Of a DNA stretch of 64,000 bases, positions 9,048-26,088 are shown in pieces. The DNA lies in assembly GCF_035084215.1 (NCBI RefSeq), contig NC_090333.1, positions 78,678,001 to 78,742,000 of the forward strand. The letters run 5' to 3'. How positions within the stretch are numbered: position 1 is the stretch's first letter; each line of letters opens with the position of its first letter. The translations under genes and the position numbers were made by a program. This DNA comes from Heptranchias perlo (lineage: Eukaryota). Under the pieces are notes generated by a model. The model made no database searches, was not told where the DNA came from, and saw only the letters and a list, made by a program, of their open reading frames with translations.

Positions 9048-9065
9048 GTGCGAACCTATGTCCCC

Positions 9066-10670
9066 GTGGGTAAACTAATGGGTCTAAAGGTTGACAAGTC
9101 CCCTGGACCTGATGGCTTGCATCCGAGGGTCTTAAAGGAAGTGGCTACAGAGATAGTGCATGCATTGGTTGTAATCTTCCAGAATTCACTAGATTCTGGA
9201 AAGGTCCCAGCGGATTGGAAAACCGCAAACGTAACACCCCTATTCAAGAAGGGAGTAAGACAGAAAGCAGGTAACTCTAGACCAGTTGTCCTAACATCTG
9301 TCATTGGGAAAATGCTAGAATCCATTATTAAGGACGTAGTAGCAGGACATTTGGAGACTCATAATACAATCAAGGAGAGTCAACATGGTTTTATGAAGGG
9401 GAAATCATGTCTGACAAATTTATTAGAGTTCTTTGAGGAAGTAACGGTCATGGTGAATATAGGGGAACCAATGGATGCAGTATATTTGGACTTCCAAAAG
9501 GCATTCGATAAGGTGCCACATAAAAGATTACTGCACAAGATAAGAGCTCATGGTGTTGGAGGTAATATATTGGCTTGGATAGAGGATTGGCTAACTAACA
9601 GAAAACAAAGGATCAGGATAAAAGGGTCATTTTCAAAATGGCAATCTGTAACTAGTGGGGTGCCGCAGGGCTCAGTGCTGGGGCCTCAACTATTTACAAT
9701 ATATATCAATGACTTGGATGAAGGAACAGAGTGTCTTGTGGCCAAATTTGCTGATGATCCAAAGATAGGTGGAAAAGCAAGTTGTGATGAGGACACAGTG
9801 ACTGCAAGGGGATATTGACAGGTTCAGCGAATGGGCAAAAATTTGGCAGATGGAATATAATGTGGGAAAATGTGAAGTCATCCACTTTGGGAGGAAAAAT
9901 AAAAAAGCAAAATATTATTTGAATGGAGAAATACTACAAAATGCTGCGGCACAGAGGGATCTGGGTGTCCTCGTACATGAAACACAAAAAGTCAACATAC
10001 AGGTGCAGCAGGTAATCCGGAAGGCAAACGGAATATTGGCCTTTATTTATAGGGGGTTGGAGTATAAAAGCAGGGAAGTCATGCTACAGCTGTACAGGAT
10101 GCTGGAGTACTACATACAGTTCTGGTGCCCTTATTTAAGGAAGGACATACTTGCATTGGAGGCAGTTTAGAACAGGTTCACTAGGTTGATTCCAGGTATG
10201 GAAGGGTTGTCTTATGAGGAAAGATTGAACAGGTTGGGTCTATACTCATTGGAGTTTAGAAGAATGAGAGGAGATCTTATTGAAACATACAAGATTATGA
10301 GGGGACTTGATAGGGTAGATTCTGAGAGGATGTTACCCCTCATGGGGGGAATCTAAAACTAGGGGGCATAGTCTCAGAATAAGGAGCCGCCCGTTTAAGA
10401 TGGAAATGAGGAGGAATTTCTTCTCCCAGAGGGTCGTGATCGTTGGAATTCTTTACCCAAAAAAGCTGTGGAGGCTGAGTCATTGAATACATTCAAGGCT
10501 GAGTTAGACAAATTTTTGATCAGCAAGGGAGTCAAAGGATATGGGGAAAGGGCGGGAAAGTGGAGTTGAGGTAAAAATCAGATCAGCCATGATCTCATTG
10601 AATGGCGGAGCAGGCTCGAGGGGCCGAATGGCCTACTCCTGCTCCTATCTCTTATGGTCTATGGTCTTAT
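9066..10670 (+). mobile_element. 5'-truncated CR1 LINE (RT domain plus 3' UTR), frameshifted
   Basis: ORF 9048-9818 has [38 protein letters not shown] and KFADD. The C-terminus continues in 9850-10560, followed by the 3' hairpin gggccgaatggcct and tail cttatggtctatggtctt. Confidence 0.97.
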
Positions 10671-11214
10671 AATCATTGAGGTGCTGTGTATTTGAGTTCC
10701 CGTGCACTGTGCCATTATTGGGGAATTTATCATAAGAACGGTAGCAGTGATGTCATCTGAGTTTAACCTCTCCTCCCATGCTGAAATTGGTTTCAGTGGG
10801 ATGAAATTTCACTACATTGCCCCCCCCCCCCGCCCTCCCCACATACTGTTCTCACAACCGCTCATCAATATTTAGCCTCCATGAAAAAATTTAATTCCAG
10901 CTACAATGTCGTCATAGCATACGATTTACATTTGTATTGTGCTTGAGTGTGCTGGCATCCTTATCTGACTGGATTCATCAAAACAGCTGCTGTATAATTT
11001 TATTTTGCAACAGCTAATCGGTACTTGCTGTAACGTGTTAGTTGGGATGCAGCCAAATATTGTGTGATGTGTTTTGGTATAATAGCAGAGGACAGCTGAA
11101 ATGTAGGATTTAGTCGAACAAAGCATCGTTTTTGCCTCGTATCTGGAATCAATCTAGATTCTATCTTTTAAAGTCTGCTGCATGTTAACCATTAAAAGTA
11201 CAGCTTGTTTAGGT

Positions 11215-12030
11215 GGTTATCATCGCTGACTTACATTGGCTCCTGGTACTGCATTGCCTCAATTTAAAAATTCTCATCCTTGTTTTCAAATCCCTCCAAG
11301 GCCTTGCCCCTTCCTATCCCTGTTGCCTCTTCCAGCCCTACAATTCTCTGAGATCTTTGCGCTCTTGCACATCCCCAATTTTAATCGCTTCACCACTGGC
11401 GGCCATGGCTTCAGCTGCCTAAGCCCTAAGGTCTGGAATTCCTTCCCTAAACCTCTCCACCTCTCTTCCTTTTAAGACGCTCCTTAAAACCTACCTCTTT
11501 GACCCTGACCTAATATCGCCTTATGTGGCTCCGCCATTCAATGAGATCATAGCTGATCTGATTTTTACCTCAACTCCACTTTCCCGTCCTTTCCCCATAT
11601 CCTTTGACTCCCCTTGCTGATCAAAAATTTGTCTAACTCAGCCTTGAATGTATTCAATGACTCAGCCTCCACAGCTTTTTGGGATAAAGAATTCCAAAGA
11701 TCATGACCCTCTGGGAGAAGAAATTCCTCCTCATTTCCATCTTAAACGGGCGACCCCTTATTCTGAGACTACGCCCCCTAGTTTTAGATTCCCCCATGAG
11801 GGGTAACATCCTCTCAGCATCTATCCTATCAAGTCCCCAATAATGGCACAGTGCACTGGAATTCAAATACACAGCACCGCAACGATTATAAGACCATAGA
11901 CCAGAGACCATAAGAGATAGGAGCAGGAGTAGGCCATTCGGCCCCTCAAATTTTGTTTGATAGCGCTGCTGTGAAGCACCTTGGGACGTTTTACTACGTT
12001 AAAGGTGCTATATAAATGCAAGTTGTTGTT
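11215..12030 (+). mobile_element. L2-type 3' end interrupted by a templated insertion at 11528-11947
   Basis: Translates to ADLHWLLV..LKILILVFKSLQGLAPSY. The tail aaaggtgctatataaatgcaagttgttgtt resumes after the insert. The uninterrupted junction is seen in the copy at 26041-26085. Confidence 0.9.
11528..11947 (-). repeat. Inverted, circularly permuted copy of 10301-10724 (CR1 3' end plus unique flank)
   Basis: 11528-11838 is the reverse complement of 10301-10611 and 11834-11947 is the reverse complement of 10618-10724. The two parts overlap at TCCCC (GGGGA in the source). Confidence 0.93.
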
Positions 12031-12130
12031 ATAGATTTCACATATTTAAAATTGCGGGACGTTTTACTACGTTAAAGGTGCTATATAAATGCAAGTTGTT
12101 GTTATAGATTTCACATATTTAAAATTGCGG
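11983..12130 (+). repeat. Perfect 73-bp tandem duplication
   Basis: gggacgttttactacg...catatttaaaattgc occurs at 11983-12055 and again at 12056-12128, with GG microhomology. Confidence 0.95.
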
Positions 12131-12644
12131 CACAGTGCACCCTAGCTCCAGCAGGCTGTGTTGTATGATGGGGCGGAGGTTTGTAATAATTATTGGCTGT
12201 GCAGAGAACTGCTGACTTTTAAACCATGACGTTGTGGTGAGTGCCCAGTTCTGATGAAGGCTATTCCTCCAAATTTTAAAAACGTTCCCTTTTAGATGCA
12301 TTTTGTTCTGCTGTGCATGTCCAGGGTTTTCTCACTTTTTGAAAAAATCTCCGGTTGCCAGCACCGTCAATTTTCTTCTTCACCTCTGTCTTCTACAGCC
12401 TACTGCTCACAAACCTGTTTGCAATGCTATGTTTTCTCATCTTATCCAGAGAGAGCAGCGCCTGTGCATCGCTCTCCGCCCTTTCATTTTTAAAGCAGAG
12501 TGCTGGTCACAATGGGCTCGCTGTATGATATGGCGATCCACTGTGTGGTGGACAGGGTTCCCATGTTTAGTTCACCAAAACCAGTTCCAGTGACACATTT
12601 GTAGGCCTGTATGTCCAAGTGTTGGATCATTTATAGCATTAAGT

Positions 12645-12692
12645 CAACAGCTAATCGGTACTTGCTGTAACGTGTTAGTTGGGATGCAGCCA
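12645..12692 (+). repeat. Exact 48-bp direct copy of 11008-11055
   Basis: caacagctaatcggtacttgctgtaacgtgttagttgggatgcagcca occurs twice, 1637 bp apart, with unrelated flanks. Confidence 0.95.
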
Positions 12693-13115: not shown

Positions 13116-14344
13116 TGTAAATTCAATCCCTGTCCCTAATCATTTTTATGGAATTCTGTATTGTGCATTGTTTTTCAGTTTGTGCCCCATTCCCTCCATT
13201 GTAAATACTAACCAACCTGTTATTCATCAGTTTGTGCCTAGTTCATGCAATATCATTCTCTAGGATCTCTAAGCAGTCTCGACCTGTCATTTCAGTGTGA
13301 CTATGAATGTGCATTTTTCTCTGCAGCGCACTTACAACTGTGTTGTTGTAAGAACTGCTGCTTTCTTTACATAAAACACATTGAAGCATAAAGAAAACAA
13401 GTTCACCATTATTCTTTCTGTTCTTAATTGATCACATTTGTTTGGTGCCTGACCATAATGAAATGCTTTTCAAACGCACTAAAATTGACATTAAGCACAG
13501 TAACTGATACGCTGCAATTTAATACTATTTTTTGTTTGAAGTAGCTTTTATTTGTTGAGGGGATTGCTGTCTTTGTGCTTTGTATAAGTTTGTCAGTAGC
13601 TCTTGAGCACTAGGTTCTAATTTTTGGGGCGATAAGATTTCAAAGTACTTTTTGATACCTATAATCAGGGATTGGTTTGATAAAAATCGGATCTTGGGAG
13701 TTGAGCAGGCGAAAGGTCATGTCTTTTCTCATGGATTTTCATTATTTAAATTTTGCCAGTTTTAATTGCAAGTTAGGTCCTTTGAAAACTGAGCTTGGCA
13801 GTCGAGAGTTATTAATAAATGGACAACGGCTCTGGGCATAATGATGAGTGGAATTCCACTGGCACCTGTTCTGGATGCCCTGCTATTTACACCCTGAACA
13901 ATGAGAGCACAATACTCCCAATAGTCCACTGACAACATCAAGCTATGTGACCAGGTGAGCAGTGTAAGGAGCTTTCCAGTATTCACCAGGAAAGTATTCC
14001 TTAGTCACTCCAGCACCATTGCAGTCTTCAACTTTAAGCTTTTCTAAGTAAACCCTTTGTGATTGTGAGTGCTGGCTTGTCTCCTCTCCGTGTGGGTGAC
14101 CTGTGAGTGATAGACATCTGTGTGCAGACTTCCCACTAATGGCTAGACATGATCTAATGGTGGAGTTGAGGTTGAAGATCCACCATGATCTTAATGAATG
14201 GCGGAGCAGGCTCAAGGGGTAGTATGGCCTACTCCTGCTCCTATTTCTTATGTTCTTATATAGTGGCTTTTTAGGTTTTCAAATTATGTTAATTTGAAGC
14301 TGCTTCTTATGTTAAACCAAGAACTTTGTCATTTGTTACGAGAT

Positions 14345-14424
14345 AGAAAGAAAGGCTTCCATTTATATAGTGCCTTTCATGACCTCAGGACATCCCAAAG
14401 CGCTTTACAGCCAATGAAGTACTT
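14345..14424 (-). mobile_element. Deu-SINE 3' tail, truncated by an inverted local duplication
   Basis: agaaagaaaggcttccatttatatagtgcctttcatgacctcaggacatcccaaagcgctttacagccaatgaagtactt matches the tail of the SINEs at 4701 and 41905. Confidence 0.85.
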
Positions 14425-14663
14425 GGCATTAGAGAGCAGTTGGTAATAAATGGACAAGTGGAATTCCACTCATTATGCCCAGAGCCGTTGTCCATTCATT
14501 ACCAACTCTACTGCTCTCTACTGCCAAGCTCAGCTTTCAAAGGATCGAACTTGCAATTAAAACTGGCAAAATTTGAATAATGAAAATCCATGAAAAAAGA
14601 CATGAACATTTGCCTGCTCGCCTCCTAAGATCCGATTTTTATCAGTCCAATCCCTGATTATAG
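14422..14663 (-). repeat. Inverted ~205-bp copy of 13659-13860 with a fold-back leader
   Basis: 14457-14663 is approximately the reverse complement of 13659-13860. 14422-14457 is a same-strand copy of about 13794-13826 and pairs with 14488-14528. Confidence 0.92.
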
Positions 14664-15856: not shown

Positions 15857-15968
15857 TCTAATCTGTGCCTCATTTAATGAATGCTACGGAATTCCTTACT
15901 GTTTTCTGTACTGCCCTCTAATCTGTGCCTCATTCAGTGAATGCCACGGAATTCCTTACTGTTTTCTG
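15857..15968 (+). repeat. Two-unit tandem duplication, 60-bp period
   Basis: tctaatctgtgcctcatt(t/c)a(a/g)tgaatgc(t/c)acggaattccttactgttttctg starts at 15857 and at 15917. Confidence 0.9.
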
Positions 15969-25744: not shown

Positions 25745-26088
25745 CCTATACTCCGATTTAAAAATTCTCATCCATGTGTTCAAATCCCTCCAAGGCCACG
25801 CCCGTCTCTAACTCTAATCTCCTCCAGCCCTACAACCCTCCAAGAATTCTGTGTTCCTCCAATTCTGGCCTCTTGTGCATCCTCGATTTCCTGCGCCCCA
25901 CCATTGGCGGCCGTACCTTCAGTTGTCTAGGCCCGAATCTCTGGAATTCCCTCCCTAAACCTCTCTGCCTCTTTACGTCTCTCCTTTTTAAGATGCTCCT
26001 TTAAAACCTGCCTCTTTGAGCAAGCTCTTGGTCACATGACCTAATATCTCCTTAAGTGGCTCAGTGTCAAATTTTGTGAGATAACCGC
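25745..26088 (+). mobile_element. L2-type 3' end
   Basis: Translates to LQPYNPPRILCSSNSGLL..RPTIGGRTFSCLGPNLWNSLP. It is followed by a Deu-SINE 5' fragment at about 26100-26240. Confidence 0.88.

Follow-up and report, generated by a model that had tools for sequence, protein, structure and literature searches.

A 420-bp local inverted copy with swapped block order beside a LINE of Heptranchias perlo, and its possible origin by fold-back repair

A 420-bp insert in the Heptranchias perlo window (the whole 64,000-nucleotide stretch analyzed here, to which all positions refer) is a complex, two-segment local inverted copy of the neighboring DNA at 10301-10724. Alignment to the donor showed the insert, at 11528-11947, to be the reverse complement of 10301-10611 plus 10618-10724 with the order of the two blocks swapped, exactly the inverted permuted arrangement proposed in a preliminary description of this DNA. 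Read on the + strand, the locus runs LINE body, A, 6 nt, B, 803-bp spacer, A inverted, B inverted, and remainder of the host repeat (Table 1). The copy lies apart from its donor and is non-tandem; as it consists of two segments and not of one continuous copied stretch, it is not a simple local inverted duplication. At not quite an even chance, on our reading of the joins, it was made by one germ-line break repair in which fold-back copying was combined with one re-priming step. The copy is most likely a neutral scar with no apparent function.

Table 1. Features of the donor, the copy, and the host repeat
Feature	Position	Strand	Basis or remarks
5'-truncated non-LTR retrotransposon (LINE), 3' end = donor	9060..10670	+	RVT_1, related copies, microsatellite tail
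Donor segment A, 3' part of the LINE	10301..10611	+	begins GGGGA, finishes GAGC
6 nt missing from the copy	10612..10617	+	overlaps 5' arm (10607-10614) of a predicted 3'-UTR stem-loop
Donor segment B	10618..10724	+	LINE tail 10618-10670, then 54-nt genome-unique flank 10671-10724 with terminal GGGGA
Spacer between donor and copy, 803 bp	10725..11527	+	unique DNA, then left part of host repeat, ~11262-11527
Copy of A	11528..11838	-	GCTC common to left join and host repeat (11528-11531)
Internal junction, end of B to start of A via a single GGGGA	11834..11838	-	sequence comparison
Copy of B	11834..11947	-	TC common to right join and host repeat (11946-11947)
Right part of host repeat, presumably an L2-like tail	11946..12055	+	4 target nt lost, no target-site duplication

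The donor LINE, which we take to be CR1-like (the host repeat is presumably L2-like), was recognized from an RVT_1 profile match in frame 9048-9815 (E=2.2e-25), from 91-95% identity to other copies across 0.7-1.6 kb, and from an 8-nt microsatellite tail; its 5' edge at 9060 is approximate, other copies aligning from 9069. Where did the two segments come from? For B the answer is clear. In the 3.25-Gb genome the flank (10660-10730) matches only the donor and the copy (11828-11898), all eight candidates having been scored, and the internal junction is spanned at this locus only among 40 candidates scored out of 591. Because the flank within B is genome-unique, its donor is this locus. The preliminary description had drawn the same conclusion for the entire insert; it holds for B but does not extend to A, where 28 other LINE copies outscore the local donor against the insert. 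Other LINE copies reach 95-97% identity to the donor. In A, donor and insert have in common one rare allele (T at 10308; 1/23, and 10/78 over all three copy sets) and two subfamily alleles with frequencies of ~40% in 23 copies selected on upstream sequence. These alleles, together with the 6-nt adjacency of the segments, make a local origin of A likely, though not proven. The 23 upstream-selected copies, from which 6 near-identical array copies had been dropped, served as the yardstick; sets of copies chosen by similarity to the source or to the insert are biased. A second shared minority allele, an extra G at 10344-10349, proved to be an alignment artefact, the donor having 6 G and the insert 5 G like the family. 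The possibility that flank and permuted order recur genome-wide as part of a CR1 subfamily consensus, which the preliminary description had named as fatal to its reading, was rejected: the flank occurs at donor and copy only, and the junction, among the candidates scored, at this locus only.

The three joins show microhomologies of 4 (GCTC), 5 (GGGGA), and 2 (TC) nt. For three random joins, a summed microhomology of at least 11 nt has P=3.5e-4. Each donor end bears GGGGA, of which the copy keeps one; beyond it the ends stay alike, though imperfectly, to 9/11 nt. The outer ends of the copy lie 6 nt apart in the donor, and under random ends a gap of 6 nt or less has P ~0.01-0.03. Six donor nt are absent from the copy and 4 nt were lost from the target. 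The empty target site was deduced from paralogous host-repeat copies, not from an orthologous locus: 4 nt separate the GCTC and TC words in 15/15 copies found by a motif search that recovered 15 of the 29 copies, and likewise in the host-repeat copy near 26055 of the window. On the microhomologies, the losses, the missing target-site duplication, and the LINE tail lying inside the insert, the preliminary description was accurate. The joins have at least 2 nt of microhomology within 15 nt of the ends, as in the polymerase-theta pathway. An origin as a retrocopy, 3' transduction, or circRNA pseudogene was rejected, there being no target-site duplication, an internal LINE tail, and no GT donor; a back-splice GT...AG was sought at the internal junction in every register on both strands, and the GT donor is absent.

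Across 417 aligned bases, 15 substitutions (3.6%) separate donor and copy. The copy of A has 11 substitutions and 2 one-base indels relative to its donor (312 aligned columns), and that of B (11834-11947) has 4 substitutions and one 7-nt indel in the tail. Within the LINE part, comparison with the family assigns 5 substitutions and 1 indel to the donor only, and 6 substitutions (all transitions) and 1 indel to the insert only. Donor and copy have thus each drifted from the family on their own, which indicates that the copy is old and not an assembly echo. In the same part there is 1 shared change vs 13 unshared, giving a shared fraction of LINE age of 0.13 and at most 0.46; the copying event hence fell early in the residence of the donor LINE, in its first 13% or at most its first 46%. 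The ortholog of spacer positions 10925-11298 in organism C is ~87% identical, from which the event is probably younger than the split from that organism. Structure, microhomologies, losses, uniqueness, relative age, and the background class described below are established.

The route that we favor would start with a double-strand break inside the host repeat between 11531 and 11946. The left end would be resected by at least 1.2 kb, leaving the top strand single-stranded, and its 3' end GCTC would fold back on its own strand at 10608-10611 and be extended by 311 nt to 10301. The new end would then release and re-anneal, on the same strand, through GGGGA at 10720-10724; synthesis would continue until it met the duplex made by the first extension, and would be trimmed to 10618. 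Finally the new strand would unwind and be joined through TC to the right break end, and gap filling would leave the donor intact. During re-annealing and the second synthesis the new strand would wrap a 419-bp loop, circular in shape yet tethered to the chromosome, and this would be why the product resembles an opened circle. The six steps, the enzymes, and the germ-line setting are what we infer from the product, including the collision, for which no precedent was found.

Fold-back copying would account in one event for the position in cis, the inversion, the 6-nt adjacency, the intact donor, and the microhomology at three joins. It can produce inverted copies only, and re-priming at GGGGA followed by collision with its own duplex would leave the 6-nt gap. 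A loop of 916 nt is needed here, with 311+107 nt copied, and the far smaller scale of the yeast precedent (PMC11724301) counts against the model. The re-annealing step requires bending a 311-bp duplex, and its feasibility was judged from the stiffness of DNA. In this one event the presumed priming joins have 4 and 5 (or 9/11) nt vs 2 nt at the capture join, the same direction as in yeast fold-backs and mouse local inverted inserts. Two further published points count against the model: extensive resection suppressed fold-back events in yeast (PMC11724301), and gap-free tiling has been argued to be incompatible with random template switching (PMC12807874), an objection that the proposed collision would answer. 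Junction sequence alone cannot separate the models, and the route is unprovable from a single product.

Are such copies common in this genome? Six blocks totaling 1.464 Mb were scanned, of which 778 kb remained after repeat masking; arrays of at least 2.5 units (75,789 bases) were masked as well. Inverted pairs scoring at least 60 bits numbered 0, 2, 2, 7, 0, and 1 in spacer bins of <100, 100-300, 300-500, 500-700, 700-1000, and 1000-2000 bp, with 0 at 2-20 kb and 1 beyond 20 kb. Twelve strong inverted pairs in 1.46 Mb thus have a spacer below 2 kb, and 7 of these lie at 500-700 bp. Direct pairs in the same bins numbered 5, 2, 2, 1, 0, and 5, and then 5, 3, 0, and 0. With the threshold lowered to 40 bits, 3 more inverted pairs have spacers of 700-844. 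Six inverted pairs were compared with the whole genome, and 5 proved unique (spacers 549, 596, 605, 625, and 654); the other, with spacer 503, turned out to be a repeat family and was dropped. The pairs with spacers 148, 401, 536, and 691 and all weak pairs stood outside this comparison. Pairs were counted unpolarized, with neither the inserted arm nor the ancestral orientation of the spacer assigned. One further inverted pair, a candidate with spacer 536, came from an independent set of 113 loci. Local inverted copies thus seem to occur about once per 120-150 kb in the sample, which extrapolates to the order of 10^4 genome-wide, and fold-back copying fits this background. One local inverted copy lies 3 kb from this event and also has two segments: at 14422-14663, a degraded direct piece of ~13795-13827 precedes an inverted copy of 13860 to 13659, both from one donor, a combination that no circle could yield. 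The 803-bp spacer of this event exceeds the 500-700 bp peak. None of 90 non-repeat frames of at least 75 aa matches Pfam (80 of 170 frames were repeat-covered and excluded, and short exons could be missed), so that no host gene was detected.

A scan of the same 1.464 Mb for swapped order, of the kind that the preliminary description had proposed genome-wide, returned 16 rows. This event accounts for 2 of them, and in the other 14 repeat is paired with repeat and no base is unique; this event was the only permuted local copy with unique sequence in the sample.

The main rival, which we consider rather unlikely, takes up the circle of the preliminary description: a true 419-bp circle, closed at GGGGA, that was either cut at 10612-10617 and end-joined nearby or copied once round by a break end. 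As part of this rival, the source of the circle could have been the sister chromatid, the homologous one, or a loop formed by slippage. Much of the structure agrees with this. An exact B-A order whose ends lie 6 nt from each other is accepted as the signature of a circle (PMC7450558), and the copy shows the features by which cSDPs are recognized, namely swapped order, donor ends joined inside the copy, microhomology or short indels only, and a non-tandem position. The outer joins look as if two breaks had exchanged ends reciprocally after trimming of 6 and 4 nt to the nearest microhomology. The size is slightly over the 100-400 bp of microDNA, GGGGA stands at both ends, and the level of microDNA depends on microhomology joining (PMC9527254); moreover, germ-line double cuts do yield circles (10.1101/2020.06.23.168138). 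Order, size, and terminal microhomology thus roughly fit, but the 803-bp proximity and the inversion are unexplained. A free circle would land within 1 kb of its origin about once in a million times in 3.25 Gb, so that coupling to the same repair is needed, and the inverted orientation is an even chance. The donor is continuous with other LINE copies and carries no matching excision deletion, although a lost sister chromatid would not be visible. In mouse testis 15/15 ectopic inserts were non-permuted and were interpreted as never circularized (10.1101/2020.06.23.168138), known circle-type duplications span 22-3918 kb and lie at least 0.09 Mb apart (PMC7450558), and the scanned blocks, which have very low power in trans, gave no distant permuted copy with unique sequence.

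What swapped order shows is only that the donor ends were joined and that the copy ends were neighbors, and several routes can meet this. The signature is not specific to a circle, since the three junctions would look alike after re-priming, fragment capture, or duplication with inversion and a flip. What chiefly separates the circle from the template-switch reading is whether the loop ever came free. Template switching had also been offered in the preliminary description, as an alternative to the circle; with local inverted copies so common we judge it the better option, in the conditional form given above.

Capture of fragments would be another way to the same junctions: two adjacent pieces, A and B, freed near the break and joined into it in swapped order. 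We regard this as unlikely. Within this reading the pieces might derive from gap-filling synthesis on a resected end or from several close cuts on another chromatid. The 6-nt gap is near the size of an RNA primer, which counts for fragment capture, and both pieces are bottom-strand, matching fill-in on a top-strand overhang. There is precedent in short insertions (median 184 bp; 113/126 within 10 kb of the broken end) that tile their origin and are chained by microhomology (PMC12807874), and in double cuts that free pieces which insert locally and inverted (10.1101/2020.06.23.168138). Both tiles must however reach one junction, where only one in four pairings gives like orientation with swapped order, and they end 803 bp short of the break, whereas the tiles of the precedent mostly adjoin the broken end; that precedent, moreover, is chromothripsis in cell lines and tumors (PMC12807874).

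A stepwise history is quite improbable. It would begin with a tandem duplication of 419 bp; a balanced inversion would follow, running from 10612-10617 of the first copy into the host repeat, and recombination between the inverted A arms would finally flip the middle back. The junctions correspond exactly to one tandem-duplication join and two balanced-inversion joins, small tandem duplications are present nearby, and inverted arms of 311 bp could recombine. But three events in one place are required, the inversion breakpoint must hit the duplicated 419 bp, and a similar route was rejected on parsimony in PMC7450558.

It is also highly improbable that the copy was made during insertion of the LINE, a second 3' end having primed in the LINE RNA at 10608-10611 and synthesis having jumped to the new 3' junction, by reverse transcriptase or, in a variant of this reading, by repair synthesis. 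The single shared change indicates a copy of almost the same age as the LINE; the cDNA strand corresponds to the + strand of the insert; and internal priming by the opposite break end has been shown for L1 (PMC12807874, Fig. 1d legend). The opening point also lies at the predicted 3'-UTR stem-loop, but the fold there is no better than shuffles (z -1.1) and carries no weight as evidence. By a rough estimate, such early timing is about equally likely under a uniform date. B requires a finished tail-flank junction, the break lies 860 bp from that junction, there is no target-site duplication, and neither 93 other repeat loci nor the 113 loci yielded a conspicuous local copy of this tail-plus-flank kind.

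An assembly artefact is scarcely credible, both copies carrying changes of their own vs the family and 6/6 insert-only substitutions being transitions; what could be cited for it is that organism A contigs (runs X1/X3; exact or near-exact in unique parts) leave 11829-11891 without coverage at 99% likeness and that no listed contig piece bridges any of the three junctions. A coverage hole proves nothing in assembled contigs, which, we infer, tend to drop short low-depth links between high-copy repeats. Six of 24 listed sequence runs were aligned (X1, X3, X6, and X10 at 85%; X1, X3, X5, and X12 at 99%). All were assembled contigs and were swamped by repeat copies, and they speak neither for nor against the junctions; the contigs of relatives break inside repeats and yielded no outgroup empty site. 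X1/X3 are possibly the same sample as the window, and so not independent of it.

As one neutral non-coding scar the event has little importance; it is of use as a test case. A swapped order is routinely accepted as proving a circle, and here a fold-back loop, tiles, or a stepwise route would give the same sub-kilobase junctions. Re-entry of small circles into the germ-line genome has been described as largely unexplored (10.1101/2022.06.22.497135). Though this is rather unlikely, the insert may be what remains of a true 419-bp microDNA circle of the germ line, one closed at GGGGA and recaptured at a break 0.8 kb from its birthplace. If so, it would be ~50 times smaller than the smallest circle-type duplication of PMC7450558, and a microDNA would have been made and re-fixed in one repair event, by the same route as the inverted copies with 500-700 bp spacers. 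The 500-700 bp peak of those ordinary copies is a better lead than this event: in it, germ-line repair would have left the mark of a physical length, that of the resection tract or of the loop, and a word-matching literature search found no report of it. The genome seems to preserve such events, and a count by orientation, distance, and size would bear on circle re-entry.

Circle-type duplications, in which A-B/C-D becomes B-A/D-C, comprise the human cSDPs and the cattle KIT, tilapia vasa, and yeast cases cited with them (PMC7450558). Like cSDPs, the present copy has its blocks in swapped order, joins the two donor ends internally, and has its own ends at sites that are neighbors in the donor; its joins show nothing beyond microhomology and short losses, the donor is intact, and the breakpoints fall in unrelated repeats. 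Unlike them, it is 419 bp vs 22-3918 kb long, with microhomology of 2-5 nt vs 1-2 nt, and it lies 0.8 kb from its donor vs at least 0.09 Mb or on other chromosomes. A word-matching search of the literature, with most subscription papers outside it, turned up no permuted copy below a kilobase that had become fixed next to its donor. In cartilaginous fishes, structural-variant breakpoints are enriched in GC-rich 5-mers, TCCCC among them (PMC13320814); TCCCC is also the word at the internal junction here, which is suggestive only.

Closer in scale are human local inverted duplications (277 events, median 284 bp, mostly with 1-15 bp microhomology; PMC12350158) and multi-switch templated insertions, which are common human germ-line variants (33/103 and 26/99; PMC8421209). 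The present event is like these in size, inversion, donor distance below 2 kb, microhomology, and more than one switch; it differs from those in the excerpted passages in that two segments lie end to end across the donor and were copied in swapped order. Local n-jumps have been defined in tumors (PMC7025897). Templated insertions made by polymerase theta (TINS) are 3-30 bp with a template within ~30 bp (PMC7165422), whereas here 420 bp were copied from 803 bp away; the preliminary suggestion of such an insertion fits the joins, but the copying step is too large for it.

Breakage-replication/fusion tiled insertions (PMC12807874) are similar in adjacent origin, tiny gap, and microhomology chaining near a break, but those tiles have random strand and many junctions in a shattered chromosome, unlike the two tiles at one clean site here. 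In mice, germ-line local inverted inserts (n=12, 16-709 bp) have a median microhomology of 5 vs 0 at their two ends, and meiotic hotspot double cuts also form circles and tandem duplications (10.1101/2020.06.23.168138). The hotspot products share the 1-2 kb scale, the local inverted inserts, and the asymmetric microhomology; unlike the present insert, they sit in ~2 kb deletions, the ectopic ones are non-permuted, and they come mostly from Atm-null mice. With yeast fold-back insertions (PMC11724301) the proposed steps are shared: microhomology fold-back, extension, unwinding, and capture with shorter microhomology. The yeast cases have a 41-nt loop and 5-34 bp copies, unlike the 916-nt loop, the 418 nt copied, and the second priming proposed here. 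The event thus behaves like a local inverted templated insertion while bearing the signature of a circle-type duplication.

Spacers (the DNA between the two arms of a copy pair) of 500-700 bp accounted for 7 of the 13 strong local inverted copies of unique DNA found in the sampled blocks of the genome assembly (contigs C1, C3, C5, C9, C14 and C24), and none of the 13 had a spacer of 2-20 kb. The arms were 60-900 bp long with 85-99.6% identity, and five of the six inverted pairs checked against the genome were genome-unique. The pile-up at 500-700 bp may reflect how far ends are resected or how large a loop forms; alternatively, it may have arisen because short-spacer pairs were lost. On C9, the window's contig, the overlapping L107 repeats look like a putative very recent element whose terminal repeats are split or inverted.

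Coordinates of the features discussed (window coordinates unless a locus, L, is named)
Feature	Coordinates	Details
Inverted pair	1540-1894	44 bp, 89%, spacer 267
Predicted LINE 3'-UTR stem-loop	10607-10646	
Tail units of the donor LINE	10655-10670	
Direct copies	11008-11055 / 12645-12692	48 bp, exact, 1.6 kb apart; only these two sites in genome
Tandem duplication of host-repeat tail	11983-12128	73 bp, perfect
Inverted copy	13659-13860 / 14422-14663	87% identity, spacer 596, genome-unique
Near-tandem duplication	15857-15968	52 bp, 94%
L107 repeats	G000:C9, window coordinates 85772-90626	935-bp inverted + 881-bp direct, each 100% identical
Example inverted copies, G000 blocks	L185:3443-4170; L196:750-1592; L197:7892-8809; L236:7265-9692	
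Inverted copy outside block set	L052:1809-2469	listed with 500-700 bp spacer group

The opening point of the permuted inverted copy falls at the 5' arm of the stem-loop, inside a short quasi-palindrome; the folding z-score of the stem-loop is only -1.1. The tails of both donor and insert contain a 7-nt unit, and the insert's tail is longer by one unit. Units of the LINE family are 8 nt, and a 7-nt unit occurred in none of the 59 other LINE tails listed.

Contigs from runs X1/X3 of organism A break at the 48-bp copies, consistent with a true repeat. Organism C, a more distant relative, carries an ortholog of the left copy, so the right one is the insert. The 73-bp duplication should also cause a break, yet one X1/X3 contig is continuous over 12081-12674; this duplication may be heterozygous, may have been removed when the contigs were cleaned, or may be an error of assembly.

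The inverted copy at 14422-14663 is preceded by a short, degraded piece copied from its donor in direct orientation; together they form another multi-segment templated insertion, lying 3 kb from the permuted one. Counting the near-tandem duplication and the 44-bp inverted pair, window 1.5-16 kb holds five of the eight local duplications in the list from 464 kb of C9, a hint that this interval is a break-prone patch.
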